NCBI GenBank assembly: GCA_017999915.1
Contig: JAGNKX010000007.1
Location: 64,488 to 128,487, forward strand
Direction: 5' to 3'
DNA from: Spirochaetota bacterium
GTDB lineage: Bacteria > Spirochaetota > UBA4802 > UBA5550
DNA length: 64,000 nucleotides
Numbering within the stretch: the first letter of the stretch is position 1; each line of letters starts with the position of its first letter. Made by a program: the position numbers and the translations under genes. Positions 22,557-62,100 of this stretch are shown piece by piece. The notes beneath the pieces are model-generated. The model worked only from the letters and a program-made list of their open reading frames with translations. It had not been told where the DNA came from and ran no database searches.

Positions 22557-25500
22557 ATGAAACGAATATTACTTATAGCCGTTTTTTCCATTTCCCTCCT
22601 GCCCGTATCCTGCAAGGTCGACAGGGGCACCCTCATCAGCCTGCCGTTCTTCAGCGTCTTTAGCAATACGGCAGGCCCGAGCATCACCGCTTTCGCCATT
22701 AATGGCGTACAGGGCACCATTACTGGCACCGATATCACCCTGACCCTTCCCTGCGACGCCACCCTCAATGACCTGGTGGCCAGCTTTACCATTACCGGCG
22801 CCCGGGTCGCGGTGAACGGGGTTGATCAGGTAAACGGATCTACCCGCAATGATTTCACGAACCCCGTTGTGTATACTGTTTATACTTCCAGCAACACACC
22901 AAAAAGCTACACCGTATATGCCACGGTGGCTGATAATACCGGGAAAGCCATTACCCGTTTTTCAATTAATGGCGTTGAGGTAGTTCCATCAGGAACCAGC
23001 ATCACCATTACTTTGCCCTATGGCACCGTTACTACAGCCCTTGTTGCGACCTTCAATACCACCGGGAAAGAGGTAAGAATTGGAAGTGTGGTGCAGGAAA
23101 GCGGCGTAACCAGTAATGATTTTACCACCCCCCAGAACGTGAAAACCTATACGGTAGAAGCCTGTAACAGAAAGATGCAGGATTATACAGTCACTGTCAA
23201 CATAGCGAAGAATAGCGCTAAGGATATCACGGGTTTTAAGATACTCAGCGCTGCCGAGACCATAGGGGCCAATACGATAACCCTTACCGTTCCCTTTGGC
23301 ACTGATGTAACAACTCTTACACCGACAATTAATATCACTGGCGATAGCGTGAGCCCTGCTTCAGGGGTGACGCAAGATTTTACCAATCCCGTCACTTATA
23401 CGGTAACCGCCGCCGACAATACAACCAAGGAATACACGGTCACTGTGTCTGTAGCGCCCAGTGATGCCAAGGATATCACTGAAGTCGAGATACTGGGCAT
23501 ACACGCGACTCCCGTAGGCAATACGATCACTATGACAGTGCCTTATGGTAATGATGTTGAGCATCTAACGCCGTTGATCTCGATCACCGGCATGAGTGTG
23601 TACCCTCCTTCGGGATTGGAACAAAGTTTTAAAGATCCAGTCATTTATACAGTAACCGCCGCCGATGGCACGACCAAGGATTACACGGTAACGGTAAACG
23701 TTGCGGCGAATCCCGCGAAGGACATAACCAGCTTTACCATTCCGGGTATGAGCAACCTTGAAATTAAGACTGATACAATAACGTTGACCATGCCCTATGG
23801 TACTGATCTGACTGACCTGACCCCGACAATCGAAATCAATGGCGTGGATATAAGCCCAGACACGGGTGTATCACGTGATTTTTCTTCTACCGTATATTAT
23901 ACGGTAACAGCAGCCGACACTTCAACCAAACAGTACGCTGTTACAGTAAACGAAGGCCCCAGTAATGAATGCGCCATAGATAGTTTTACTATATTGGGCG
24001 AAAGTGGTATTATTGTCGATATGGGGACGTACAATACAATAACACTGACCGTGCCATATGGTTCCGGGTTAACTCTGACGCCTACAATAGTTGCATCAGC
24101 GGGTGCAACAGTTAGCCCCGCCTCAGGGGTACAGCAAAATTTTGATACTGATATTGATTATGTTGTAACGGCAGCCGATGGCATATCATCGAAGATGTAT
24201 ACTGTTCATGTTGAGGAAGGCCTTAATAGCGCCAACGATATATTGATATTCTCCATTGACGGTACTGGCGGTTCAATAGGAGCTAATACTGTAACACTGA
24301 ATATGCCCTATGGGACGAATGCAAAAAGTCTTACACCGTCCATAACCGTCTCTTCTAGAGCCACTGTAAGTCCCGAATCAGGGGAGACTCGAAATTTTGA
24401 AAGTCCTGTTCTATACACGGTCACCGCGGAGGACGGCTCTCAGAAGATATATACGGTGACCGTCATTCTTGATCCCGGCGACGACTGTGATATAACATCG
24501 TTCTCTATAGGTGGAGTAAATGGGACCATTGGAACGAGCACCATAAGCCTTAACCTGCCCTTCGGGACAAGTAAAACAAGCCTGACACCGTCAATAACTG
24601 TATCTGATGGCGCAAGTGTTAGCCCTGTTTCGGGAGTGGCCCGGGACTTTACAGGAACGGTTCATTATATCGTAACAGCGCTGAACGGCACCACTACAAA
24701 GGATTACGCGGTAACCGTTACAGCAAACCTGAGCGGAACCTACGCGGTGGGTTACTATTATAGCGGTAATGATATCGCCTGCCTGTGGGACATCGCCAAG
24801 GCCACTCCGGTGAAAACTGACCTTGAGACAAGCGCCCATAGCTCAAGGGCCATCAGCGCTTCGGTCCTGGGCGATACCGTCTATATTGTTGGTAAATACG
24901 ATGGCAATCCCTGCTATTGGAAGATAGTAGGTGAAAGCGTGACACCATATGTGTTAAGTACCGGGATCACAATACCCGTTGATGTTGTTGATTCCCTCAT
25001 TATCGACTCGGCGAGTTCCGATGATTATTTATATATTTCCGGTACAAACAATAATGTTTCCGGCTCCAGTCGGGCGTGCTACTGGAAAGTTAACCTTACT
25101 GATGATAGTTATAATATGGTACTCCTGACTGTGAGCGGTACTGACTCTTCATTGGGCAACGAGATTGCCGAATCCAGCGGCACTATTTATATAGCAGGAA
25201 CATCGATTAGCACCTATGAGACTCCCTGTTATTGGAGCATTGTATCCGGTGGAGGCACACCAAACTGCTTTTATAACGGTATCGCTTACGGCAGAATTAT
25301 GATGCTTAATGGGACCGAAAAAATTGTAGGTGGGTGGTATGATTATAATACTATAGTCCCTTATACGCAGGCCGAGTATTGGACCTGTATTGAGTCAACG
25401 GGTACATTGGTTAAATTACTCCCTGACATGCCAGGTACCAATTATTCCTCAATTGTAAACTCTTCATTGTATCAATCCGGGACCAATGATCGTTATTTTG

Positions 25501-25772
25501 TCGGACAGCTCATGGGCTATGCGTCCTATTGGCTTGCTGATAATGCTGGCGTTTCCCTTCCCGGCGATGGAATTTCCAATGCCTATGAAATAATGCAGAA
25601 TGATGATGATGATATTTATATATCTGGTTATTGTAAAGCCAGCGGCGACTCGGTATCCTCTTCAACCGCTCGCGTATGGAAGATGAGCGGAGGCACTGTA
25701 ACAGAAACTATTACCCTTACAGAGAGCACCGCCGGCGAATCCGCCGCCCGTGACGTCTTCATAAAGAATTAA
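22557..25772 (+). CDS. large lipoprotein: 8 tandem Ig-like repeats plus a YW-repeat (beta-propeller-like) C-terminal domain
   Basis: Lipobox LPVSC. Eight repeats of about 77-83 aa. The C-terminal ~350 aa carry 6 spaced [CSE]YW / VW motifs. Confidence 0.7.
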   Translation: MKRILLIAVFSISLLPVSCKVDRGTLISLPFFSVFSNTAGPSITAFAINGVQGTITGTDITLTLPCDATLNDLVASFTITGARVAVNGVDQVNGSTRNDFTNPVVYTVYTSSNTPKSYTVYATVADNTGKAITRFSINGVEVVPSGTSITITLPYGTVTTALVATFNTTGKEVRIGSVVQESGVTSNDFTTPQNVKTYTVEACNRKMQDYTVTVNIAKNSAKDITGFKILSAAETIGANTITLTVPFGTDVTTLTPTINITGDSVSPASGVTQDFTNPVTYTVTAADNTTKEYTVTVSVAPSDAKDITEVEILGIHATPVGNTITMTVPYGNDVEHLTPLISITGMSVYPPSGLEQSFKDPVIYTVTAADGTTKDYTVTVNVAANPAKDITSFTIPGMSNLEIKTDTITLTMPYGTDLTDLTPTIEINGVDISPDTGVSRDFSSTVYYTVTAADTSTKQYAVTVNEGPSNECAIDSFTILGESGIIVDMGTYNTITLTVPYGSGLTLTPTIVASAGATVSPASGVQQNFDTDIDYVVTAADGISSKMYTVHVEEGLNSANDILIFSIDGTGGSIGANTVTLNMPYGTNAKSLTPSITVSSRATVSPESGETRNFESPVLYTVTAEDGSQKIYTVTVILDPGDDCDITSFSIGGVNGTIGTSTISLNLPFGTSKTSLTPSITVSDGASVSPVSGVARDFTGTVHYIVTALNGTTTKDYAVTVTANLSGTYAVGYYYSGNDIACLWDIAKATPVKTDLETSAHSSRAISASVLGDTVYIVGKYDGNPCYWKIVGESVTPYVLSTGITIPVDVVDSLIIDSASSDDYLYISGTNNNVSGSSRACYWKVNLTDDSYNMVLLTVSGTDSSLGNEIAESSGTIYIAGTSISTYETPCYWSIVSGGGTPNCFYNGIAYGRIMMLNGTEKIVGGWYDYNTIVPYTQAEYWTCIESTGTLVKLLPDMPGTNYSSIVNSSLYQSGTNDRYFVGQLMGYASYWLADNAGVSLPGDGISNAYEIMQNDDDDIYISGYCKASGDSVSSSTARVWKMSGGTVTETITLTESTAGESAARDVFIKN
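22680..24725 (+). repeat. 8 tandem coding repeats (~230-250 nt each)
   Basis: Consensus: ITxFxI.G..G.I....ItLt[VM]P[YF]GT....LTP.I...G..vSP.SGv..dF..PV.YTVTAaDgttK.YtVTV. Confidence 0.8.
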
Positions 25773-28783: not shown

Positions 28784-30922
28784 CTACGCGTATCCGGATA
28801 CCAGCACCACGGTGGACATCTTCCTCACAAGGTAGCGGTTCCCATCAAGAAACGGCTCCTTTCCCGCGTCGAAAATGTCGAAGGGCGGATCATTGGCGGT
28901 GTCTATCGCCACCTTCCACCTGCCGCCCGATGGCGCCGGCGGGACCTCGAATTTCCGGTTGACCCTTCCGCTGTGGAATATCATGTAGATGTCGCTGTCG
29001 GCCCTCCCTTCAGTCGTTTCCGCGTATTCCCCGCAGATGAGCATGGCGATGGAGCGGCTGTCGACGCCCCAGTCCGGCTCATTGACGCGGAACCCGTGCC
29101 AGCTTATGTCCGGGTGGGACCTGCCGCCGGTGGCTTCGCCGGAGAAGAAGCTCCCTTTCCTGAGGAGTGGGTGCTCCTTCCTGAACCGAATCATTTCCCT
29201 CGTGAATCGAAGGAGGTCACGGTTGAGCTCCATCAGGTCCCAGTCGACCCAGGAGATATCGTTGTCCTGGCAGTAGGCGTTGTTGTTTCCCTTCTGGGTC
29301 CTCCTGAATTCGTCGCCCCCCAGCATCATCGGGATTCCCTGCGACAGAAAAAGGGTGGACAGGTAGTTCCGGATCATGCGGGAGCGCATCCTGGTTATGA
29401 GCTTTGTCGCGTCCGGTCCCTCCACGCCCAGGTTGCAGCTCAGGTTGTGGTTCTCTCCGTCGGCGTTCTCCTCGCCGTTTTCGGCGTTATGCTTCTTCCG
29501 GTAGCTCACCAGGTCGTTCAAGGAGAAACCGTCATGGCAGGTGACGAAGTTGATGCTCTGCAGGGGGCCCTTCACCGAGGAGCCGTACAGGTCCGAGCTG
29601 CCGGTGACGCGGGTGGCGAAATAGCCGACCACGTTCCTGTCGCCGCGCCAGAACCTCCGGATGTCGTCGCGGTACTTGCCGTTCCATTCGGCCCACCGCC
29701 CGGGGAATTCCCCCACCTGGTAGGCGCCGGCGGCGTCCCAGGCCTCCGCGATGATCTTGGTGTTCCGCAGTATGGGGTCTTCGCCGATGACCTCTATCAG
29801 GGGCGGATTGCTCATGATGCTGCCGCTCTGGTCCCTCCCCAGGATCGACGCCAGGTCGAAGCGGAAGCCGTCGACGTTCATGTCGATGACCCAGTAGCGG
29901 AGGACCTCGAGGATGAATTCCCGCACCAGGGGATTGTTGCAGTTGAAGGTGTTGCCGCACCCGGAGAAGTTGGTATAGAACCGGGGGTCCTTATCGAGTA
30001 TGTAATAGATCGAATTGTCTATGCCCCGGAACGAGATGGTCGGCCCGGTCTCGTCCCCCTCGGCTGTATGGTTGAAGACCACGTCGAGGATCACCTCTAT
30101 CCCCGCGCCGTGAAAGGCGTGGACCAGGTCCCTGAATTCGGCCACCTGTTCGCCCATGGCGCCGGAGGAGGAGTAGGAGCCCTTGGGCGCGAAAAAGGCC
30201 ATGGTGTTGTAGCCCCAGAAGTTCTTGAGCCTCTTCCCGGTGAAGGGATTGATGTTCGTGTTGTCGTCCTCGTCGAACTCCTGGACCGGCATCAGCTCCA
30301 CGGCGTTGATGCCCAGCTCTTTCAGGTAGGGGATCTTTTCCATGAGGCCCCGGTAGGTGCCGGGACTGCCCACACCGGAGGATCCGTGGCAGGTAAATCC
30401 CTTCACGTGGAGCTCGTAGATGATATAGTCGCGCTCCGGTATGCGCAGCGGCATGCCGTGGAGGATCCGGGGCCTGTCCAGGGCTATGCACCGGGGCATG
30501 AAGGGTTTGCTGTCGGCGGATGAGAATGAAAGGTCCAGGTCGGGAGAGCCGGCATTGTAGCCCTGGGCCATGGTGAGGTCCCACCGGCGCGTCCCGGTTA
30601 TGGCCCTGGCGCAGGGATCCAGGAGCAGCTTGTTCTTGTTGAAGCGGTGCCCCTTGTCCGGCTCGTAGGGGCCGTCGATGATGTAGCCGTAGATCTGCCG
30701 TTCCGGCAGGCCCTCTATCAGGATGTGCCATATGTCCCCGGTCCGGTGGAGATCCGGGTCAAGCGGCACCTCGATATAGGGAGAATCCGCTTTATCGGAT
30801 TCAAAGAGGAGAAGGGTCACCGTCGAGCAGTGCCTGCTGAAGATCGAAAACTGTATGCCGTCTTTCGTGACATGGGCCCCCAGGGGAAGGGGGGACCCGG
30901 GCATCGTTTTCAGGTTGCCCAT
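28784..30922 (-). CDS. glgX: glycogen debranching enzyme (isoamylase, GH13)
   Basis: GINAVELMPV, EVILDVVFNHT, GFRFDLAS, AEAWD, NFVTCHDGFSLNDLVSY. Confidence 0.9.
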   Translation of the reverse strand: MGNLKTMPGSPLPLGAHVTKDGIQFSIFSRHCSTVTLLLFESDKADSPYIEVPLDPDLHRTGDIWHILIEGLPERQIYGYIIDGPYEPDKGHRFNKNKLLLDPCARAITGTRRWDLTMAQGYNAGSPDLDLSFSSADSKPFMPRCIALDRPRILHGMPLRIPERDYIIYELHVKGFTCHGSSGVGSPGTYRGLMEKIPYLKELGINAVELMPVQEFDEDDNTNINPFTGKRLKNFWGYNTMAFFAPKGSYSSSGAMGEQVAEFRDLVHAFHGAGIEVILDVVFNHTAEGDETGPTISFRGIDNSIYYILDKDPRFYTNFSGCGNTFNCNNPLVREFILEVLRYWVIDMNVDGFRFDLASILGRDQSGSIMSNPPLIEVIGEDPILRNTKIIAEAWDAAGAYQVGEFPGRWAEWNGKYRDDIRRFWRGDRNVVGYFATRVTGSSDLYGSSVKGPLQSINFVTCHDGFSLNDLVSYRKKHNAENGEENADGENHNLSCNLGVEGPDATKLITRMRSRMIRNYLSTLFLSQGIPMMLGGDEFRRTQKGNNNAYCQDNDISWVDWDLMELNRDLLRFTREMIRFRKEHPLLRKGSFFSGEATGGRSHPDISWHGFRVNEPDWGVDSRSIAMLICGEYAETTEGRADSDIYMIFHSGRVNRKFEVPPAPSGGRWKVAIDTANDPPFDIFDAGKEPFLDGNRYLVRKMSTVVLVSGYA

Positions 30923-30935
30923 GGCGCCATCCTGT

Positions 30936-31301
30936 TTATTTCACCTCGGCCGTCAGCATCAGCTTGATCGTGTTCTGCTCCGGGTCGTTGGTGTATACCA
31001 TGACTGACTTGGTCAGTTTTCCGGAATGGTTTCCGGTTTTAAGCGTTATTTCTATTTCTCCGCTGCCTCCGGCAGGGATGTCCTTCTTGGAAAGAAGGAC
31101 GCCGGTGCAGCCTCATCCGGCCGAGATCTTGTCTATCACCAATGTGCCGTCACCGGCGTTCTTGAACGCGAAAACGTGTTTGACTTCGATGTTCTGCTCC
31201 TGCCTGCCGAAGTTGTGTTCGGTTTTCTCGAATTGGATCCTGGGCTTTCCGTTGCAGTACAGGACCGCCGGCAATAGCAGCAATATAAGGAATTTCTTCA
31301 T
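30936..31301 (-). CDS. DUF1573-family secreted protein with in-frame TGA at the conserved Cys position (candidate selenoprotein, 121 codons)
   Basis: Hand translation: MKKFLILLLLPAVLYCNGKPRIQFEKTEHNFGRQEQNIEVKHVFAFKNAGDGTLVIDKISAG-[TGA 31113-31115]-GCTGVLLSKKDIPAGGSGEIEITLKTGNHSGKLTKSVMVYTNDPEQNTIKLMLTAEVK-TAA. The frame continues for 58 codons with family-like sequence. AAGGAGG lies 8 nt upstream of the ATG. Confidence 0.6.
31062..31111 (-). promoter_or_regulatory. SECIS-like stem-loop immediately 3' of the in-frame UGA
   Basis: RNA: GCUGC-A-CCGGC-GUCCUUCUU-ucc-AAGAAGGAC-aucccu-GCCGG-a-GCAGC. The 9-bp apical stem starts 13 nt after UGA, and outer helices extend it to the codon. Confidence 0.4.
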
Positions 31302-31431
31302 TGAATAGGGCCTCCTTGATGTGCATAATTAGGATGGGCGATGATTTTAATATGGCAAGCATTTTTTTAGATGGTTCAGATATGCCCCTGGATCCCCCAG
31401 GGACCGCATCAGTGCTGTGGGATCTTTTATA

Positions 31432-31628: not shown

Positions 31629-31732
31629 ATTTTTTAATTTTTTTCGCAAAAACTATTAAGTATTTTCGCCTCCCTTCCGATCATAGTAATGATTATTATT
31701 GATACACTCCTATCATAAAATTTACCAGGTTG

Positions 31733-31776
31733 AAGGCTTTTGCAGCTCGCACTCCTGCAAAAGCCTTTTATTTTCT
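31733..31776 (+). terminator. orphan intrinsic-terminator-like hairpin with no upstream plus-strand gene
   Basis: aaggcttttgcag (31733-31745) pairs with ctgcaaaagcctt (31755-31767), followed by ttattttct. Confidence 0.45.
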
Positions 31777-31920
31777 CTACACCTTCCGGCCTATAATACA
31801 ATTTTGTTTAATAATATTTTATTACCTATATTACGATAATGTAAATGTGTGTTGATGTTTGAAACATTGATACAATTATGCGTTGATAGTAATCTTGGCC
31901 GCGTGAAGTTTACACTTGGT

Positions 31921-31995
31921 TCTCGCAGAGCCGCAGGGGCGCAGAGAAAAATGGGAAAACAATATTAATCTCTGCGTCTCAGCGCCTCTGCGAGA
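31921..31995. repeat. long imperfect palindrome about 80 nt upstream of tsaC
   Basis: tctcgcagag (31921-30) pairs with ctctgcgaga (31986-95). The inner gcgcagaga pairs with tctctgcg. Confidence 0.6.
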
Positions 31996-32075
31996 GATCA
32001 TTCAAGAATTGTTGTGGCCAATACCGGATAGAAAAAAAAGTAAATTTACAATAATATTAGGAAGGAGTTTCTCCC

Positions 32076-35108: not shown

Positions 35109-36746
35109 CTACACAATCATGGATCTCTTTATATCAATAGAGACATTGTTCAGATACGCGGAAGCCTGTTCAAGGGAGGCAAAGGGTCTCCTTAGAATAA
35201 TATCGGTGGCACCCTTTTTACCGATGCCGGGAATCAGCTCCAGGGCTTTCTGCGGCAGGGTATTGATATTAATTGGAAACGGGAGGGCCATCAGCGATCT
35301 CTCGCGATGGGAAATGATCACGACGTCGTGAAAGCTCATCAGGGGAAGCTCCATCGGGATCTTCAATGTTATGGAATAGCTTGCGATCTGTTTTGCGTAG
35401 GAATATCCGGCCTGTGTTTCAAGGACCTGGCCCTGCCGCAGTATGGTGCCCGGCGGATAGATATTGACCAGCATGGGATGCTCTATTTCGGATCGGATCC
35501 TGTCGCGATAATAGGTGAAGCGGTTCTCGACGCTTTTGGAGGGTGCGTATTTTTTCGCATGGGCCGGCGTGCCGGGGAAGGGAATGACCTGGCGGATGTT
35601 GATCCTCTTCACCAGGAGCCCCCGCTCCAGGATCTCGGACAGAGAGCGGTAGTTTTTCTCAAAGGTTTCCACTGTCTCGCCGTCGAGGCCGTGGAGAAGG
35701 TTAACTCCCGGAAGAAGCGACGGGATGGAGTCAATCCTTGCGCCGCCGATGCCATTGATGATCTCGATGGCGCGAAGGGCCTCCCTGGGAAAGACCTTCA
35801 GGTTGTTCCTGCGAACAACCTCTTCATCGAAGGATTCGATCCCCAGCGCCATGGTGTCCCCCGGCGTGACCGTCGCCGCCAGGTCTTTCAGGATCGATGA
35901 CGATTCATCGGGAAAGGCGGCGATGGTCCCCGGATTGGCGTTGTCGATATTGAGGACTGATATGAGGCCCCTCTCTTTCCTGGCCCGCAGCTCCGACAGG
36001 AGCTCCCCGATCGGCCCGGGCACCGGCCTGGGGAAACCGCCGGTGAAGCCGGCGCAGTCGGACTTGTACTGCAAGATGTCCGCCTGGCGCCCGAGCCTGA
36101 AGCGGGACACGCCGGCCCTGATGAGGGCGTCGATCTCCGCGATGACATCTTCCGGTTCGCGGAATTCCACTCTTTCGAAGAGCCCCTCGGAGCAGAAGGA
36201 GCAGTGGCCCCGGCGGGGACAGCCCCGGGATGTCTCGATCTCGCAGATGATGTCCGGAAAGCGCGGGTGCGCGCGGACCGATCCGGCTCCCAGAACGGCC
36301 CATCGGGCGATCTCCGGGGCGGTGCGCCGCTCGTCCTCTTCTCCGCCGCCGGCGAAATGGCGGGCGTATTTCTCGATGTCATTGCGAACGAGCGTGACAT
36401 TGTCGCCGCCCGGCAGAACATAGCTTATGAGGCCGCCTATGGCGATCCGCTGTCCCGGGTTCCGCTCCGCTATGCGCCGGATCTCGGCGGCGGTGCCGAT
36501 CCTGCTACCCAGGTAGCGGCCGGGGACCACGGCGCCGCCGACGAGAAACACCATGTCGTAGGAGCGTTCGAACCGGTAATCGCCGTTCCGGAGGGAGTCG
36601 ATGGTGAGGCAGTGGATATGGCCCTCGTCGACCCCCGCCTCAGACAGGGCGCCGTAAATATAGCGCGGGTAGGGCGATACGAAGGGAGGGACGCCGAAGC
36701 ATGCCGGCTCGTCCACATAGCAGTCAAGGACGCAGCAGCTCAGCAT
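35109..36746 (-). CDS. radical SAM enzyme with C-terminal helix-hairpin-helix motif
   Basis: ETSRGCPRRGHCSFCSE cluster. The C-terminal LELIPGIGKKGATDIILRRPF is HhH-like. The ATG overlaps the end of the upstream HD gene. Confidence 0.75.
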   Translation of the reverse strand: MLSCCVLDCYVDEPACFGVPPFVSPYPRYIYGALSEAGVDEGHIHCLTIDSLRNGDYRFERSYDMVFLVGGAVVPGRYLGSRIGTAAEIRRIAERNPGQRIAIGGLISYVLPGGDNVTLVRNDIEKYARHFAGGGEEDERRTAPEIARWAVLGAGSVRAHPRFPDIICEIETSRGCPRRGHCSFCSEGLFERVEFREPEDVIAEIDALIRAGVSRFRLGRQADILQYKSDCAGFTGGFPRPVPGPIGELLSELRARKERGLISVLNIDNANPGTIAAFPDESSSILKDLAATVTPGDTMALGIESFDEEVVRRNNLKVFPREALRAIEIINGIGGARIDSIPSLLPGVNLLHGLDGETVETFEKNYRSLSEILERGLLVKRINIRQVIPFPGTPAHAKKYAPSKSVENRFTYYRDRIRSEIEHPMLVNIYPPGTILRQGQVLETQAGYSYAKQIASYSITLKIPMELPLMSFHDVVIISHRERSLMALPFPININTLPQKALELIPGIGKKGATDIILRRPFASLEQASAYLNNVSIDIKRSMIV

Positions 36747-37294
36747 AATGCCGCCACGATCTCCTCGATGTCGCGGGTGAGAAAGCCCTGTATCTTTTTT
36801 TCGACCGCAAGGACGAAGGACTTGTTCTCGGTGATCAGGGTGATGATGTGCTGGTTGATCCCGTAGCGCTTGACCAGGTCGTCGACGCGGTCGTCTATCG
36901 ACACGATGGTGTCATGCATGACACGCTTGTCCGCGTAGAAGACCAGCTCCCGCGCCTCCAGGTCTCCCTTGGGCTTGAAGCCCTCGAACACGACATGGGA
37001 ATCGACGATCTCCGCGATGGCGTCGTAGCCCAGCTCGCGCATGATCTCGCCGCCGATCAGGTCATGGCGCATCTCCTTGGTCTCGATGGTCCTGGTCTTG
37101 GCGATGTCGTGGAGGAGGGCGGCCGTCATTACCAGGCTGTCCTGTATGATGTCCGGGACCCTGAGGTGGGCCACCAGGGCCATGGCGACGTTCATCACCT
37201 GCTCGGAATGGCGCATGATGTTATCCCGCATGCCGTAGCGCCTCATGATCTCGTAGCATTCCTCCAGGGTGGGGACCGGTGCGTGGTTGTTCAT
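36740..37294 (-). CDS. HD-domain metal-dependent phosphohydrolase
   Basis: H...LLHDIAKT ... HD-type His/Asp spacing; 184 aa. Confidence 0.7.
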   Translation of the reverse strand: MNNHAPVPTLEECYEIMRRYGMRDNIMRHSEQVMNVAMALVAHLRVPDIIQDSLVMTAALLHDIAKTRTIETKEMRHDLIGGEIMRELGYDAIAEIVDSHVVFEGFKPKGDLEARELVFYADKRVMHDTIVSIDDRVDDLVKRYGINQHIITLITENKSFVLAVEKKIQGFLTRDIEEIVAALC

Positions 37295-37495: not shown

Positions 37496-38287
37496 TCATG
37501 GCGACGGAGCCTGCTCTGACCCCAGTGGCGCCAGGGTCAGCTCGTCCCCTATGGCCATCCCGTACTTCTCCGCGATGGATCTCTCGCGCAGGGTCAGCTC
37601 GATAAACCCGGAGCTCCCCCGTAACATGCCGCACTGCCCCTTGAAGAGGTCGCCGTAGGCGCGCACGCAGATCGATTTGATCCGGTATCGCTCTGAAGAG
37701 ACCGAATACAATGAGCAGGCCTCAAAGTCAATTGTATTTACCGGGAGAGACGTTATGGCATTGCCGAATTTATCGATATGGAGGATGAGGCAGGTCAGGG
37801 CGTTCCCCGATGCAGAGAACCGCGGGAAGTCACTCTGTATTACCGATACCGCCGGGGTCCCGAATTCTTCGGGCTTCGCTCCCCGGGCGAGACCGGCCGC
37901 GACCGGGGCGAAAACGTCCCTGCCGTGAAAGGTGCGGGAGGCCTTTTTGAACAGCGACATGTCGATGTGGTACACCGCGGTGATATCGGACATCACCGCG
38001 GAGATGACGCCGTTGTCGGCCATGACGAACCGGTACCGGCCGTCCGACGCAATGATCCCTTCGCGGCCGGTGCCCACGCCGGGATCGACGATGACGCAGA
38101 AGACTGTTCCCTCCGGGAAAAACCGGTACGACGAGTGCAGGATGAACTGGGCGTTCAGGATCGAATAAGATTGAACGGAGTGGCTTATGTCGATGATGTC
38201 GACGCCGGGGGACAGGCTTTTAATCACGCCCTTGACGACGCCGACAAAGTGGTCGGTGTATCCGAAATCCGTAATAAGAGCGACCAT
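37496..38287 (-). CDS. SAM hydroxide adenosyltransferase / SAM-dependent chlorinase-fluorinase family (DUF62)
   Basis: ALITDFGYTDHFVGVVKGVI, DISH, VDPGVGT, ADNGV, FHGRDVFAPVAA. Confidence 0.8.
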   Translation of the reverse strand: MVALITDFGYTDHFVGVVKGVIKSLSPGVDIIDISHSVQSYSILNAQFILHSSYRFFPEGTVFCVIVDPGVGTGREGIIASDGRYRFVMADNGVISAVMSDITAVYHIDMSLFKKASRTFHGRDVFAPVAAGLARGAKPEEFGTPAVSVIQSDFPRFSASGNALTCLILHIDKFGNAITSLPVNTIDFEACSLYSVSSERYRIKSICVRAYGDLFKGQCGMLRGSSGFIELTLRERSIAEKYGMAIGDELTLAPLGSEQAPSP

Positions 38288-50581: not shown

Positions 50582-52111
50582 TTGAAAAACGAATTGAGAC
50601 GGTTCGAACAGAGAATACTGTTATTCTCTGTTTTTTTTCTGTCCCTGTGCGGGATAACCTATGAGCTCGTGCTGGGCTCCCTGGCGACCTATCTCCTGGG
50701 CAACCCGGTGCAGCAGTATTCCATCACCATAGGCTTTTTCCTCAGCTCCATGGGCCTCGGCTCATACCTGTCCCGGTACCTGACGAAAAATATATTAAAG
50801 AATTTCATCATGATTGAGGTGGCCCTCGGCTTCGTGGGCGGCCTTTCGGTCCTGGTCCTCAGCTATCTCTTTTCCTTTTCCGCATCCTATTACATGCTCC
50901 ATATCTTTTTCCTGGTCCTCATCGGAACCCTCGTGGGCCTGGAAATACCGATCGTGACGCGGATCCTCAGGAAATATGGGGCCTTGAAGGACATCCTGTC
51001 CAATGTCCTTTCCCTGGATTACATCGGCGGCCTGGCGGGTTCGCTCCTGTTCCCGCTCCTCCTGTTTCCCTTCCTGGGGAGGATGCTCACCAGCATCATC
51101 ATCGGCGCCCTCAACATAGGTGTCGCGATGATCATCATCGTCAAGATAGACTACGAGAACAAGCGGAAAAGCGACTTCGTCATCCCGATCATTATCATGA
51201 TCATCCTGGCGGCCCTGGCCGCTTCTTCGGACCAGATCAACACCATTCTGCAGAAACGGCTCTACTATGATGACATCGTTTTTTCGAAGCGGTCCCATTA
51301 CCAGGAGATCGTGCTGACGCGGAACGACGAGGATTTCCGCCTCTACCTGGACGGCTCCCTCCAGTTTTCATCCGTGGACGAGTACCGCTACCACGAGATG
51401 CTGGTGTTCCCGCCCCTGTCCCTCAACAGGGCCCCGGACAAGCGGGTCCTTGTCCTCGGCGGGGGCGACGGCCTGGCCGTCAGGGAGATCATAAAATGCG
51501 GAGACGTGGCCGCCGTTACCCTGGTGGAGCTCGATCCCGCCATGATCGACCTGGCGAAAAAGAATTCCTCGCTGAAGAGACTCAACGGGAATTCCCTGCT
51601 GGACCCCCGGGTGACCGTCGTGGTGGGGGACGCCTACGCCTATTTGATTGGAAATAAAAAAAAGTATGACGTGATCATCGCCGATTTTCCCGATCCCCAC
51701 GACGAGACGATCACCAAGCTCTACACGGTGGAATTCTACTCCCTCCTGCGTCGCTCCCTCGCCCGGGGCGGGGTGTTCGTGACGCAGTCGACGTCGCCGC
51801 TCTTCGCGCGGGATGCCTTCTGGTGCATCCACAATACAATGCAAAAGGTCTTTTCCTCGGTCGTCGCGTACCACGTGTACGTGCCGTCCTTCGGGGACTG
51901 GGGCTTCAACATGGCCTGCGACGGCGTCTGCGACGCCGCCATGGCGGCGGAGGTGACTCCCGGCCTCAAATATTATTCCCCCGAAACCTTCGGGCAGTCG
52001 CTTCATTTCCCCCGGGACGCCGCGGTTTCCCGGACGGAGATCAACACCTTCAACAGGCCGGTGCTCTACAGCTATTACCTGAAGGGGTGGAAATACTACA
52101 TGGAGATGTGA
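50582..52111 (+). CDS. polyamine aminopropyltransferase (spermidine/spermine synthase-like) fused to an N-terminal multi-TM domain
   Basis: About 7 TM helices, then VLVLGGGDGLAVREI, LVELDP, DVIIADFPDP, GG.FVTQS. The apparent TTG start is uncertain. Confidence 0.8.
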   Translation: MKNELRRFEQRILLFSVFFLSLCGITYELVLGSLATYLLGNPVQQYSITIGFFLSSMGLGSYLSRYLTKNILKNFIMIEVALGFVGGLSVLVLSYLFSFSASYYMLHIFFLVLIGTLVGLEIPIVTRILRKYGALKDILSNVLSLDYIGGLAGSLLFPLLLFPFLGRMLTSIIIGALNIGVAMIIIVKIDYENKRKSDFVIPIIIMIILAALAASSDQINTILQKRLYYDDIVFSKRSHYQEIVLTRNDEDFRLYLDGSLQFSSVDEYRYHEMLVFPPLSLNRAPDKRVLVLGGGDGLAVREIIKCGDVAAVTLVELDPAMIDLAKKNSSLKRLNGNSLLDPRVTVVVGDAYAYLIGNKKKYDVIIADFPDPHDETITKLYTVEFYSLLRRSLARGGVFVTQSTSPLFARDAFWCIHNTMQKVFSSVVAYHVYVPSFGDWGFNMACDGVCDAAMAAEVTPGLKYYSPETFGQSLHFPRDAAVSRTEINTFNRPVLYSYYLKGWKYYMEM

Positions 52112-52117
52112 CGGGAC

Positions 52118-53029
52118 ATGAAGAAAAGGGCCGAGATGAATTTTGACCTGAAGCAGCTGCGTTCCTTCCTGGAGGTCCTGGCCGAGAACAGCTTCACCAG
52201 GGCTTCGCGAAAGCTGAAAGTAGGACAGGCCACCATCAGCCACCATATCATCCAGCTTGAAAAGGAGCTGGGCGTGAAGCTCATCAACCGCACGGCCCGC
52301 GACGTTTCCGTGACCGAGGAAGGGAAGGTGTTCCAGGCCTTCTGCGAGAAGCTCTTCAAGAACATGGAAGCGGTCTTGTCGGACCTTGACCGCGGCGCCA
52401 CTGCCGTGATCACGCGTATCGCAGCGAGCACCATACCGTCCGCGTACATCCTGCCGAAAATACTGGCGGCCGTGAAAAAGGAGTTTCCCGGCGTCATCTA
52501 CCGACTCCAGGTCACGGACAGCAGGGAGGCTGTGGAGATGGTGAAGGATGGAACCGCCGATGTCGGCATTGTGGGGAAGGAGTACCGCCATCCGGGACTG
52601 TCCTATACCCCGATCTGCGCCGATGAGATCGTACTGGTGGGCCCGAAGGGCTCCCCCTCGGAAATCAGCGTCGAGGATATCGTCCGGATGCCCCTGATCA
52701 TCCGCGAGGCCGGGTCCGGCACCAGGAAGAGCTGCGAGGAGGCCCTGGGAAGGCGCGGCATAACGCCTTCGGCGCTCCAGGTCGTGCTGGAGACTTCGTC
52801 GACGGAAAGCATAAAGGAATCGATCGCCGCCGGGCTGGGGATGTCATTCCTGTCGCGCCTGGCCGTGGAGCAGGAAAAGAAGTCAAAATCGCTGGTTGTG
52901 GTCGGGGTGAAGGGACTCGTTATCCGGCGGTCCTTTTATTTCGTCCGTTCGGGAAGCAAACAGCTGCACCGTCCGGCGCAGCTGCTTTATGATTCACTTG
53001 TTGAATTCGGGAAAACCCTTGGTCGATAA
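52118..53029 (+). CDS. LysR-family transcriptional regulator
   Basis: LRSFLEVLAENSFTRASRKLKVGQATISHHIIQLEKELGVKLINR. It starts 6 nt after the preceding gene. Confidence 0.85.
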   Translation: MKKRAEMNFDLKQLRSFLEVLAENSFTRASRKLKVGQATISHHIIQLEKELGVKLINRTARDVSVTEEGKVFQAFCEKLFKNMEAVLSDLDRGATAVITRIAASTIPSAYILPKILAAVKKEFPGVIYRLQVTDSREAVEMVKDGTADVGIVGKEYRHPGLSYTPICADEIVLVGPKGSPSEISVEDIVRMPLIIREAGSGTRKSCEEALGRRGITPSALQVVLETSSTESIKESIAAGLGMSFLSRLAVEQEKKSKSLVVVGVKGLVIRRSFYFVRSGSKQLHRPAQLLYDSLVEFGKTLGR

Positions 53030-53394: not shown

Positions 53395-54537
53395 TCAAAG
53401 GTCTTTCCTGAATTGCTGCGGTGACATGTTCGTGTTACGGGTGAATACACGGTAGAAAACCGATTTCGAATTGAAGCCGACCGCGTGCGCCACCGAGAGG
53501 ACCGGCCGCGCCGGGTCCTCTCGCAGCAGGCGCCGGGCCTCCTCGACGCGGTGGCGGTTGAGATAGGCGCTGAAGCTCTCTCCGAGCTCGCGGTTGAGAA
53601 ATTCTGAAAGCTGGTGGGACGTAAGATCGAGCAGCGCTGCGAGACGGGGGAGGGTCAGATCCTCGTCGCAGTAGATCTTTTCCTTTTCCATGAGCTCGTC
53701 AAGGCGGACGCGCAGGGAAGCGCGGTCGAGTCCCTTCGTGTGCGTCAGCTGGTAGCGTCCGAGGGCCACGTTCAGATTGGGGTACAGATCCGGGTAACGG
53801 TATGTGAAGATGTACCATACGATCACGAGGACGCTCACGAGGCCCAGGCCGGCGAGGGCCAGCAGGGACGAAAAGAGCAGCTGGGAGGCCAGTACGAGGC
53901 CCAGGGCGATGATCAGGTATATAATCGAGCATATGATCGGGAAGGCGTTGTGCATGCCGTTGCCCCGTGAGCGCCGCAGGAAAAACTGCGCCACCAGCGC
54001 CAGCTCGTATGAGAGTATTTGAACTAACCATGCGAGGAGCAGCGCGTACTGTACCAGGTCAATCTCCCGGGGGCCGCTCCAGGGGAGGGCCCGGCGCGCC
54101 TGGAGGATGCCAGCGGCATCGAGGGCCGAGAGTGCCGCGGCGGCAATGGCGGGGACGAAATGAACAGCGTGTCTTTTCCCCGGGGAGATATCCTCCATGA
54201 TGACCTTGTAGGCGATTATGTAATGGAACGGGCTTGTCGCGTAGAGCATGAGGAAAAGCAGTGGCGCGCCAAAGAATCTATAGTCGAAGGCGGGATCAGA
54301 AAAGTACGTGTAAAAATACAGGATAAAGAAGCCGGTCCCGAGGAACACCGCGCCGAAGTAACTGTTGGCGAACTTCCGGTTAGGGCGCGCCAGGTGGGCA
54401 ACGGACATCAGCACCGAGAGCGCTCCGCTGAAGAGAATGAAAAAATCGAGCAGATGAAAAGTTCCGATCCGCATCATGCCACCTGGAACTGTGGGTGGCA
54501 TGTGCCATTCTGCACGAACGAATGACCGGGCATGCAA
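53395..54537 (-). CDS. AraC-family transcriptional regulator with an N-terminal multi-TM (sensor-like) domain
   Basis: About 7 hydrophobic helices, then the C-terminal HTH LTLPRLAALLDLTSHQLSEFLN...VGFNSKSVFYRVF. The start codon is uncertain. Confidence 0.75.
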   Translation of the reverse strand: MHARSFVRAEWHMPPTVPGGMMRIGTFHLLDFFILFSGALSVLMSVAHLARPNRKFANSYFGAVFLGTGFFILYFYTYFSDPAFDYRFFGAPLLFLMLYATSPFHYIIAYKVIMEDISPGKRHAVHFVPAIAAAALSALDAAGILQARRALPWSGPREIDLVQYALLLAWLVQILSYELALVAQFFLRRSRGNGMHNAFPIICSIIYLIIALGLVLASQLLFSSLLALAGLGLVSVLVIVWYIFTYRYPDLYPNLNVALGRYQLTHTKGLDRASLRVRLDELMEKEKIYCDEDLTLPRLAALLDLTSHQLSEFLNRELGESFSAYLNRHRVEEARRLLREDPARPVLSVAHAVGFNSKSVFYRVFTRNTNMSPQQFRKDL

Positions 54538-59199: not shown

Positions 59200-62100
59200 C
59201 TAATTGTTCTGGAACCCGAGATTCCTGATCATTACACCGATGTCGATATGCGGATCATTCATATCAGCTATTGCGTTCAACATAACCGAAAGGTCGTCCC
59301 AGAGCGGGGAGTTGGGATCGCTTACAATGGACCAGCTCATGAAACCGTCCAGATCCTGGATTACATTTTTCATGGAATACGGCGTCGTAATATTAGTAAC
59401 AATGTAATGTACGATGCTGTCCTCGTCGTTAAGAAGGATTTGAACGTTTCTGAGAAGACGCTCGTATTTCTCACCGGTCCCGCCCGTTGTTTTCATGACA
59501 TCATGGATCTGCGGTATATACGTAAGGAGCTTTACCAGTTGATCAAATGAATTGGTCTTTCCCGGGCCATAGTCATATCCATGGTAGTGCCAGCCTGAAG
59601 AATCATGCCTGGCGAGAAGCTTGCCGGTCGTGTACAGGAGCCCCTGGCATTCATCCTCCGTCAGCTGCTGCGCTAAAAAAGCATTTATGATATTCACCAG
59701 GTTTTGTCTGACATCCCGGGTCCCCCCCATGAAGCTCGCCAGTAGATCGTACGATTCTTCGAAGTTCGACCAATTATCGCAAGTCGGCCAGTTATTGACG
59801 GTGCGAAACGCGCCTTCGTAACCCATATAATCCTCCAGATTAACATCTTCCGCCCGTGGGTTGAACATCCAGGCGTGCCGTGCGAAATCCACCGTGGCGA
59901 AATATCCATTTGTTATGGCTTCGCTCCTGTTGAACTTTATGGCTGTCATGAGCTGTTCGAGTCCTAAGGCGATATTTTCACGCTCGGTCGTATAGGGTTC
60001 ACTCCCCAGGAGCTGCAGCAGGCCCAGCAGCCTCGTGGCCAGGCCGCTGTTGTCCGTCATCATGGGGAAAACACCGTCATAACCGTTGATGCTGTTCCCG
60101 GCGAGAACGCTCAGCAGGGTGCGCAGCGAGTCCCGCGGTATGTAATTGTTGATGGTGGGCGTATAGCCCTTGTCAGAGACATTGGGCCTGAAATAGATAT
60201 AGGTATCGCCGGTTTCATCTTTTACCCGCGGGACCCACCGATCATTGGGTGAATTAAAACGCCGGAGCATGGGTTTGCCCAGTGGTATCAGAACCCCTTC
60301 AAGGATGTCGGCGAGGGGATACTTGTGAGGCGATGGTGATGTATGGTTATAATTGTATCCCGATGTTGATGGCACATACTTGGTCCAGTCACGAAGGGTG
60401 CCGGCCAGGGCGGACAGGGCCGGGGCAAGCCTGTTCCTGTTCCCCCATGCGGTGTCCCATTTCGACGATCTGTCGTCTGATAGTATGGCGCTGGCGTTAT
60501 TGATCAAAAAAGCCAGACGCGCCGCAGGCTCGATATTTCTGCCGATAGCGTCAGGGAGGACATGCCCTGATCCAAGAACTTTTTCAAACAGGAATTCGGC
60601 ATCTATATATACTATGCCAAGATTCAATAAATTCACCCGGTGGCAGAAGACCATGATACGGCCGTCGCCCGGTACATTTGAATCGCCGTAATCGGGTGTA
60701 TTCGCGTAATTGGGGTTATTCGCGGCGGCGGGTATTCCCTCGGTCCCAAGCTTGACCCAGCGGCCGTTGGCGCTTCCTTTTTTCGCGTTGGCAAGGCCCA
60801 CGGCGCCGTTGGCCTCGATAAGGATAAATGCCCCGGCTGATTGAATATTCAACAAATTCACAAACATGGGAATAATGAAGGAGAATTTTTTCTCGAACAG
60901 GAACCAGTGTATGTTTCTGAAGATCGCTTCTTCCTGGGTGGTGCATTCACGGATGGAAACGCCCGATCCGGGAGACGTTTCCTGGTTCTGTCCGATCCTT
61001 TCGTGAAATTTAAAGGTAGTGGCGTTTGTGGAAGCACCCGAGATGTCTATCAAATTGTATTTATCAGCATCGGCGGCTCCATTGACATAGGGTAATCCCG
61101 CATCATTCATCGGTGGAAGATTATAATAAGGAGTTGATCCGTGCTTGATGATGTAATGATCCGATACGACTGTATCCTTGTATCGATTGGCCCTCTGGCC
61201 ATTGGCGTCATCGGGGTCAGCCATGTCATCGCCGATACCGGTCTGTGTTGAATTGGGGTACGCATATTCCCACGATGCCGGGCTAGTCGAAGGTTTATAG
61301 ACATAGGCATAGACCTCGCCGTTTGGCTTGTAATAGACATTGACAGTCTTCCTTCCGCTCACCGGCAGCGTATAGCTGGCAGTGGCCGGATGATCCGTGT
61401 CATTGACATGGGTTGTCGAATAATAGGGCCCCTGGCCGTCCCATGCGACCCGGGCGATCCAGCTCATGAGGAACTGCGCGGTGTTCAGCACTCCTTTCCC
61501 ATCCGCGACCCTGGGCCAATAGGTCCGGTAATCATTTCTGTAGTTATTCGCCGCAAGCGTTGCGGCATTGGTTTCTGTCTCATTGCTGTTAACGGTTACC
61601 GCGGTATCCCCGCCATTGGGAATGCCGGCATCACCGGCGCAATTGGAAGGCAGCAGCAGCAGGGGAGGTGAGTCGTAACCAATGTAAAATTTATGATATC
61701 CGCTGTCGGCATCACCGGTCGTGAATGAGGATGAGCTCCGTGAAATGTGATTTCCCTGCTCGGTCCTCTTTGCCAGGGCCAGAGCGTATGAATTCATTGT
61801 ACTCGGAAGCGGGATACCAAGCAAAGCCAGTGTGTTTTTGATTGTAGTGCACATGCCCGGAGTGATGCTGTCTATAAGGGCAAAGAGGGCATCATTCGTG
61901 GACACGGAAAACATGCAGTCATTTATGGTCATCACGCCTTTGGTGGCGATGCCATGGCCATAATTGAAATTGGTGTAGTCGCCTTCTCCGGAGGCGGACC
62001 CGACCCGGGTCAGGAAGCCGAAGTGATAGGCGGATCCGATCGTATAGACGAGATGGTCCAGGTAGGACATCTGCGACCAGGCGGCATCGCTCGTCCGGTC

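Follow-up and report, generated by a model that had tools for sequence, protein, structure and literature searches.

The window analysed here, that is, the whole 64-kb stretch of DNA, carries on its minus strand a small gene of the DUF1573 family, which contains an in-frame TGA and is closely followed by glgX. The gene order is tsaC (divergent), the DUF1573 gene and glgX, and the features of the locus are listed below, with the TGA given as we read it.

28784 to 30922, minus strand: glgX, glycogen debranching enzyme (TIGR02100, 769 bits, cut-off 640.9).
30936 to 31301, minus strand: gene of the proposed DUF1573 selenoprotein, 121 sense codons including the UGA (Sec) codon 63, then TAA.
31059 to 31078, minus strand: hairpin H2, UCCCUGCC-GGA-GGCAGCGGA, 7-8 bp with one bulge, loop GGN, the loop lying 42 nt after UGA.
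31080 to 31100, minus strand: hairpin H1, 9-bp stem GUCCUUCUU/AAGAAGGAC (31100-31092 / 31088-31080), loop UCC, obtained by per-sequence folding.
31107 to 31109, minus strand: codon of Cys65, the proposed partner of Sec63 in U-G-C, invariant in the 120-sequence alignment.
31113 to 31115, minus strand: in-frame UGA, codon 63, proposed to be read as selenocysteine, first position of U-G-C; Cys in homologs and TGA in 62 related loci.
31254 to 31301, minus strand: predicted signal peptide MKKFLILLLLPAVLYC, a hydrophobic, signal-like N-terminus.
31311 to 31317, minus strand: Shine-Dalgarno sequence AAGGAGG, 9 nt 5' of the ATG, read directly.

The open reading frame listed for this gene (31301 to 31113, minus strand) has 62 codons, ends in ...VIDKISAG and stops at the TGA at 31115-31113. 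Past this TGA the frame is open for 58 further codons (GCTGVLLSKKDIPAGG...AEVK) up to the TAA at 30938-30936, and the translation of 31301-30936 consists of MKKFLILLLLPAVLYCNGKPRIQFEKTEHNFGRQEQNIEVKHVFAFKNAGDGTLVIDKISAG, the internal TGA, GCTGVLLSKKDIPAGGSGEIEITLKTGNHSGKLTKSVMVYTNDPEQNTIKLMLTAEVK and the final TAA. The first start codon 3' of the UGA in this frame is at codon 101. When U was replaced by Cys, the product matched the Pfam profile PF07610 (DUF1573) with 87.1 bits (cut-off 26.1), residues 22-120 covering positions 1-98 of 98, and the 121-residue product also matched a HYDIN/VesB-like Ig model. Because the PF07610 domain straddles the UGA, neither half of the protein is a domain alone. 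The original prediction had described the 62-residue frame with its 58-codon continuation, which reading and translating the minus strand confirmed, and had recognised DUF1573 sequence past the UGA, which agrees with the coverage of the whole profile by the read-through product. The strong Shine-Dalgarno sequence, the signal peptide and glgX 13 nt downstream, which it had also proposed, were all found as described, glgX being identified by its TIGR02100 score.

The structure of the protein was approached through the homolog P0001, which is 68% identical. Its AlphaFold2 model, built with a 120-sequence alignment, has a mean pLDDT of 91.3 and is eight-stranded and all-beta, and position 63 is predicted to lie in a short turn between strands 54-61 and 65-69. 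Foldseek placed the predicted fold among the PapD/ASH-type Ig domains, with 2qsv of P. gingivalis (function unknown) as the best match (TM 0.71, 20% identity), and a PDB sequence search with the family profile gave no match. As the fold search led no further than generic Ig domains of the PapD/ASH kind and a protein whose function is unknown, the structure offers no functional lead, and the literature searched describes no function for any DUF1573 member. In the lipobox region, L-Y-C16 comes after a stretch rich in L, and all five closest homologs keep Cys16, from which the protein is probably a lipoprotein, lipid-anchored in the clade of the window. The equivalent of Cys16 is missing in some distant members of the clade, so that export appears to be general in the clade and lipidation does not.

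DUF1573 is a large family, with 33,807 cluster representatives at E <= 0.001, many of them multi-domain, for example in Bacteroidota. Cys was the commonest residue at the UGA column and at +2 in 534 aligned DUF1573 domains. The 120 closest database homologs (123 aligned domains) included 105 domains with C-x-C and 17 stored as 'W'-x-C, in agreement with the prediction that the UGA occupies the column of the first Cys of the C-G-C motif. Four relatives were found in the first protein search (49-68% identity), every one stored with Trp at the UGA column, and the DNA of these four has TGA at the column in all cases (4/4). The W-x-C entries are thus TGA codons mistranslated by gene callers that used a TGA=Trp code.

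The seventeen stored Trp residues could also be taken as a sign of a genome-wide change of the code in which UGA means Trp or Gly, as it does in genetic codes 4 and 25. This is extremely improbable. The W calls stem from short metagenomic contigs of 0.6-2.6 kb, and in homologs with a genuine sense codon the column holds Cys, never Trp or Gly. The 27 confident genes of the window use TGA (11), TAA (10) and TAG (6) as stops, and the TGA-terminated genes, which have the expected length, include a speE-like gene, acyl-CoA ligases and DUF6873. TGA thus serves as a normal stop codon here and the code is not reassigned.

The peptide patterns used to collect related loci include IPAGG. When one genome per species was scanned, 31 loci were obtained, in which all 22 loci from Spirochaetota MAGs had an in-frame stop at the UGA column (42-83% identity), as did one Desulfobacterales and one Syntrophobacteraceae locus, and the homologs of Bacteroidota, Thermoanaerobaculia and Verrucomicrobiia read x-C-G-C-T. 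Another 54 loci, divided likewise between TGA and Cys, came from metagenomes. In total, TGA was found at the column in 62 related loci, which represent 39-43 unique sequences with a protein identity of 42-100% and come mostly from uncultured Spirochaetota, whose MAG forms have 42-84% identity, and in some cases from Desulfobacterota; more distant homologs have Cys. The Sec forms were mutual nearest neighbours in the sampled set, the nearest Cys form being L056 (40-48% identity), and the closest relative of L056 itself was a Sec form, L058 (53%).

These loci also bear on whether the gene is simply a pseudogene broken at codon 63, or the product of a sequencing or assembly error at a true TGC or TGT codon. 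The public records would suit such an explanation, as they give only the 62-residue truncated product for this gene, yet its probability is negligible in our view. The 366-nt gene, TGA included, is identical in four independent assemblies from four different sequencing runs, and hence the TGA is not an error of sequencing or assembly. A pseudogene is not expected to keep the 58 codons after the stop intact, or to share its stop with loci of two phyla. Synonymous differences 3' of the UGA were as many as or more than nonsynonymous ones in close relatives (16:5, 13:7 and 11:7 in the closest), and the terminal stop was at the same position as in the window in 12 of the 13 relatives compared (11 TAA, 1 TAG). 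Judged by these differences, the region 3' of the UGA is under purifying selection. In place of the degenerate downstream frame that a dead gene might show in its relatives, the frame is conserved, and a TGA followed by an intact, constrained frame across two phyla argues that the gene is not a pseudogene.

The accepted sign of selenocysteine in bacteria is a UGA conserved at a Cys column with a stem-loop after it. The original prediction included one long hairpin directly after the UGA, with a 9-bp apical stem and two outer helices (GCUGC/GCAGC and CCGGC/GCCGG). RNAfold on 31040-31120 reproduced this hairpin at -29.9 kcal/mol (z = -2.9; 1 of 200 dinucleotide shuffles was as stable), and the apical stem at the 13th nt after the UGA held in the fold of the window, with an apical hairpin also among relatives. 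The outer helices form in the minimum-energy fold of the window itself, but covariation did not support them. They were paired in 79%, with 13-15 of the 39 sequences unpaired at five positions, they showed essentially no compensatory change, and they compete with H2. As a fixed-column consensus the long hairpin reached just 67% pairing. A single extended hairpin was therefore rejected as the conserved structure in favour of two adjacent hairpins, H1 and H2. Because the outer helices lack covariation and the register of H1 slides, per-sequence folding with synonymous-recoding controls was used.

The stem of H1 begins 12 nt after the A of UGA in the window, with the loop at 21 nt. A hairpin of 6-12 bp was present in 39 of 39 unique sequences, starting 12-19 nt from the U of UGA, and its stems had at least 10 different sequences, such as GGCACGC.UCC/GGA.CGUGUC, CUCUCC/GGAGAG, GGAUCUGUUG/CCAGCAGAUC, GCUUUGCU/AGCAAAGC, GUCUCG/CGAGAC, CCGUGU/ACACGG and UUGCCU/AGGCAA. 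The register slides between clades by up to about 3 nt either way in pair-sum (1.5 nt in hairpin centre). H2 is near-constant in sequence, with 92.7% of cells paired, a conservation that is partly ascertained because the loci were retrieved through IPAGG, a bias which the Cys forms with the same peptide address in part. Its pair 42-52 was U-A in 25 sequences, C-G in 13 and another combination in 1. This covariation runs through the codons: Pro CCU went with Ser AGC/AGU or Lys AAG in 21/21 cases and Pro CCC with Glu GAG/GAA in 10/10, whereas Cys forms that encode the same IPAGG[SKE]GEI peptide mixed those Pro, Ser, Lys and Glu codons freely.

The comparison with synonymous recoding separated the two groups in the same way. 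The 45 nt after the UGA had a mean z of -2.0 in Sec forms (n=37) and of -0.03 after the column in Cys forms (n=20). For H2 alone, the Sec forms averaged -10.0 kcal/mol (z = -1.95), and Cys forms with the same IPAGGxGEI peptide -4.3 kcal/mol (z = +0.5). As the sequences are phylogenetically related, these z-scores and the pair counts make independent events look more numerous than they are. Among folding windows along the Sec genes, structure was confined to those at +3 and +18, counted from the U of UGA (-16.3 and -14.3 kcal/mol; elsewhere -5 to -9). The RNA structure after the codon 63 column is specific to the UGA forms.

The SECIS of E. coli fdhF is the prototype of the bacterial SECIS. The consensus bSECIS model asks for an apical loop of 3-9 nt, an upper stem of 4-16 bp and a G within the first two loop positions (PMC13188914), together with a UGA-to-loop spacing of 16-37 nt and an MFE of -7.5 kcal/mol or lower (PMC13188914, Fig. 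2 legend). H1 agrees with this model in its 3-nt loop, 9-bp stem, spacing of 21 nt and energy of -10.4 to -11.9 kcal/mol, but it lacks the loop G, the loop being UCC in the window and UCA, UCU or CUCAA in close relatives. Thus the prediction that a hairpin lies at the position of bacterial SECIS elements stands, and so does its caveat about the missing G. H2 has a G in its 3-nt loop GGA, 7-8 bp and -11.0 kcal/mol, but its spacing of 42 nt (39 nt in the delta type discussed below) is outside 16-37 nt. By a simplified implementation of the published bSECISearch criteria, a gap-free hairpin agreeing with all four was present in 5 of the 39 unique sequences. Rfam returned no SECIS or other credible family for the whole window at the gathering threshold, nor for 30980-31180 at E <= 10. 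The gene resembles those with a bacterial SECIS in having a stem-loop within the coding region directly 3' of the UGA, and H1 does so in keeping its pairing while the stem sequence varies between relatives; it differs in that the clade of the window has a second conserved hairpin, H2, with GG in the loop, too far downstream. Some bacterial selenoprotein genes depart from the consensus model (PMC13188914), and the DUF1573 selenoprotein family falls among these. Such a non-consensus SECIS is a useful test case for SECIS predictors.

This misfit to the consensus lends something to an explanation in which the UGA is read through or terminated without selenocysteine. Near-cognate read-through, stimulated by the downstream hairpins, might insert Cys or Trp, or programmed termination might release a 62-residue peptide while the hairpins regulate the translation of glgX, a regulatory role that the tight junction with glgX makes conceivable. 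The searches for the machinery of selenocysteine also found none of its genes, which is uninformative for the genome as a whole, as they covered the window and the flanks of related loci. No match to selA, selB or selD was found among the 40 larger ORFs of the 64-kb window searched against NCBIfam (ten of them also against Pfam), and ARAGORN detected no tRNA whatever, tRNA-Sec included, in the window or in 24 related loci. A tblastn search for selA and selD over 779 kb (the window and about 715 kb of related loci), with approximate E. coli queries, gave no match, which weighs little because the queries were approximate and the related loci offered flanks only. On the other side, the UGA falls on the Cys column, of redox type, in a family that already counts among the selenoproteins, and the delta-type members share the UGA and H2 without a glgX neighbour, which indicates that the RNA structure tracks the UGA and not glgX. 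To our knowledge, hairpin-stimulated read-through of stop codons is not an established bacterial mechanism. Decoding or termination without selenocysteine is accordingly improbable, though less so than a pseudogene or a changed code.

One ORF of the window (52118-53029) scored 272.9 bits on NF040786, 'selenium metabolism-associated LysR family transcriptional regulator' (cut-off 250), and gives a weak hint of selenium use by this genome. When the window was scanned for pairs of ORFs linked through a single TGA or through two, both ORFs having 45 codons or more, no other selenoprotein gene emerged. The remaining TGA-joined pairs were rejected as adjacent separate genes (speE-like/LysR at 52109) or off-frame overlaps.

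Taken together, the Sec/Cys pair at the column, the conserved TGA and frame, and the UGA-specific RNA structure support the core of the original prediction, and we put the probability that the gene encodes a 121-residue exported selenoprotein, with UGA codon 63 read as Sec, at about 0.9. The reading is further supported because the family is already recognised as a selenoprotein family and its OS_HP2 members share G-U-G-C and H2. Codon 63 would be decoded as selenocysteine under the direction of the mRNA structure directly downstream (H1 and H2), presumably in dependence on SelB and tRNA-Sec, and we infer that H1 or H2 is the hairpin to which SelB binds. The product would then carry U-G-C in place of the C-G-C of most family members, within a turn that connects two beta strands. 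Because Sec takes a place in a motif of the C-x-C type, and other Sec/Cys pairs offer an analogy, U-G-C most likely forms a redox-active selenenylsulfide centre that acts outside the cytoplasm; metal binding is a possible alternative.

The ATG of glgX is at 30922, 13 nt past the TAA of the selenoprotein gene, and this junction contains no terminator motif, from which co-transcription of the two genes is inferred. The gene order, with the divergent tsaC and with glgX, was kept in nearly all Spirochaetota loci, including those whose GlgX is as little as 60% identical. In the delta type, the next downstream gene was that of a HAD-family hydrolase in the two loci examined, and the delta-type neighbours priA, HAD hydrolase, polA and M20 peptidase gave no redox or metal clue; no neighbour of either type points to a redox or metal pathway. 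As a speculative extension, which we consider rather doubtful, the DUF1573/OS_HP2 genes might have a bipartite SECIS, both hairpins being needed for SelB-dependent decoding, with Sec insertion gating the translation that reaches glgX. H1 may in that case act as a sequence-variable spacer hairpin without the loop G at the canonical position, and H2, 39-42 nt from the UGA, as the hairpin with conserved sequence and a GGN loop. If this were true, selenium supply would gate translation into the tightly abutted glgX start in the spirochaete clade. In biological terms, the selenoprotein reading leads to a U-G-C protein that is exported, may be anchored by a lipid and has glgX as its conserved partner.

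The known relatives of this gene are the OS_HP2 proteins and the Cys-containing DUF1573 proteins. Whether selenocysteine-containing DUF1573 members had been reported was left open in the original prediction, and they have in fact been reported since 2007. Zhang and Gladyshev described OS_HP2 as a new selenoprotein family with two sequences from the Olavius algarvensis symbiont metagenome (PMC1976440, Table 2), where it was first seen in the delta-1 and delta-4 symbionts (PMC1976440). The entry 'DUF1573 domain-containing protein, UGC' is among the selenoprotein families in the reviews of 2022 and 2026 (PMC9312934, PMC13188914), and OS_HP2 is curated as NCBIfam NF041425. This model, 'OS_HP2 family (seleno)protein', was the best NCBIfam match of the window protein, at 82.5 bits, which is below the curated cut-off of 100 and makes the protein a relative instead of a member in the sense of the curated model. 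The spirochaete types tested scored 67-83 bits and the delta type 122-143, so that NF041425 at its threshold misses the whole spirochaete clade. Recognising the clade would correct dozens of MAG annotations, in which the gene is stored as a 62-residue fragment, as in the window, or with Trp at the Sec position, as in the relatives from short contigs, and it would extend a poorly sampled selenoprotein family into Spirochaetota.

The spirochaete and delta types both have the PF07610 domain and a signal peptide, Sec at the same column (G-U-G-C), the IPAGG motif downstream, and a conserved H2 (CCC[U/C]GCC-GGN-GGC...) after a variable H1. They differ in that the spirochaete type consists of one domain (about 121-160 aa) and the delta type, of about 240 aa, has an extra C-terminal domain; in the gene downstream, which is glgX in nearly all spirochaete loci and a HAD hydrolase in the two delta loci; and in a one-codon length change inside H1. 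The position of G-U-G-C, IPAGG and H2 common to both types argue for a common Sec-containing ancestor. The Cys DUF1573 proteins share the Ig/PapD-like fold, the position of the x-G-C motif and the IPAGG motif with the window protein, but they have Cys in place of Sec and, behind its codon, no excess of RNA structure. The window gene is thus a new spirochaete sister-clade member of a known selenoprotein family, in which the family, the motif and the decoding principle have already been described.

The divergent intergenic region between tsaC and the DUF1573-Sec gene, the selenocysteine-encoding gene of this window, contains a conserved noncoding element and a second structured feature.

31674-31790, + strand: noncoding element of about 115 nt
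31916-32001: long near-perfect palindromic hairpin of about 86 nt, between the element and tsaC

Nearly every Spirochaetota locus shares the element, with nucleotide identities of 78-91%, a higher degree of conservation than in the proteins on either side. Its sequence on the tsaC strand is ...CCGAU...AUGAUUAUUAAUGA-UACACUCCUA-...-UUUACCAGGUUGAAGGCUUUUGC-loop-GCAAAAGCCUUUU(U-run), in which an invariant block that carries an anti-SD-like CUCCU is followed by a 14-bp intrinsic-terminator hairpin. The same element was found upstream of tsaC in the related loci L004-L023 and L037-L052. Searches of the element against Rfam and for tRNA gave no match, and the candidate identities are a tsaC leader/attenuator or a small RNA. 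The distance from the element end to the tsaC start was 30-90 nt in the distant relatives L016, L017, L020, L021 and L023, and about 290 nt separate the two in the clade of the window, where the palindromic hairpin may be an insertion parting the element from tsaC. The miRNA-precursor models matched this hairpin on both strands with E values of 0.004-0.03, and their family names were regarded as chance.

The Sec forms of the DUF1573 family, which carry TGA at the first Cys column of the C-G-C motif, are stored wrongly in two ways in the public protein collections (P0001-P0004 and P0158-P0218, 17 database proteins; P0154). In some entries the Sec residue is given as Trp, because gene calling on short contigs used the code in which TGA is Trp, and others are truncations of 62-66 residues (NCBI, JGI and Logan). 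The public record of the gene in the window is only a 62-aa fragment.

Besides this gene, the sole selenium-related signal in the window was a LysR-type ORF, which scored 272.9 bits, above the curated cut-off of 250, on NF040786, the 'selenium metabolism-associated LysR family transcriptional regulator'. The ORF has a membrane polyamine aminopropyltransferase-like gene (50582-52111) on one side and an AraC-type regulator (53395-54537) on the other.

52118-53029, + strand: LysR-type ORF
638-27690: large polysaccharide-biosynthesis region
22557-25772, + strand: very large ORF, 1071 aa
35109-38287, - strand: three-gene cluster, including a 545-aa radical SAM protein (- strand)
36740-37294, - strand: DVU_1551-family NTP transferase domain protein of the cluster
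37496-38287, - strand: (R)-S-adenosyl-L-methionine hydrolase-like protein of the cluster
59200-63591, - strand: very large ORF, 1463 aa

The polysaccharide-biosynthesis region encodes several GT2 glycosyltransferases, a WecB/TagA-type transferase, a polysaccharide deacetylase, an AsnB-type and a WbuX-like amidotransferase, two acyl-CoA ligases and a PLP decarboxylase. For the ligases and the decarboxylase, the best NCBIfam models were 'exosortase A system-associated', with scores below the curated cut-offs. Searches of NCBIfam gave no match to the 1071-aa ORF at E <= 1e-5 and none to the 1463-aa ORF at E <= 1e-25.

The downstream neighbour was compared with that of the delta-type, two-domain form of OS_HP2, the known Sec-containing DUF1573 family, in the related loci L032 and L076.

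L032 10639-11715: HAD-family hydrolase gene, directly 3' of the delta-type OS_HP2 selenoprotein gene
L076 3746-4372: HAD-family hydrolase gene, in the same position

Both glgX and the HAD-family hydrolases are carbohydrate- or phosphate-handling enzymes. The single-domain, spirochaete-type gene is followed by glgX, whereas in both delta-type OS_HP2 loci examined the HAD-family hydrolase comes next instead.
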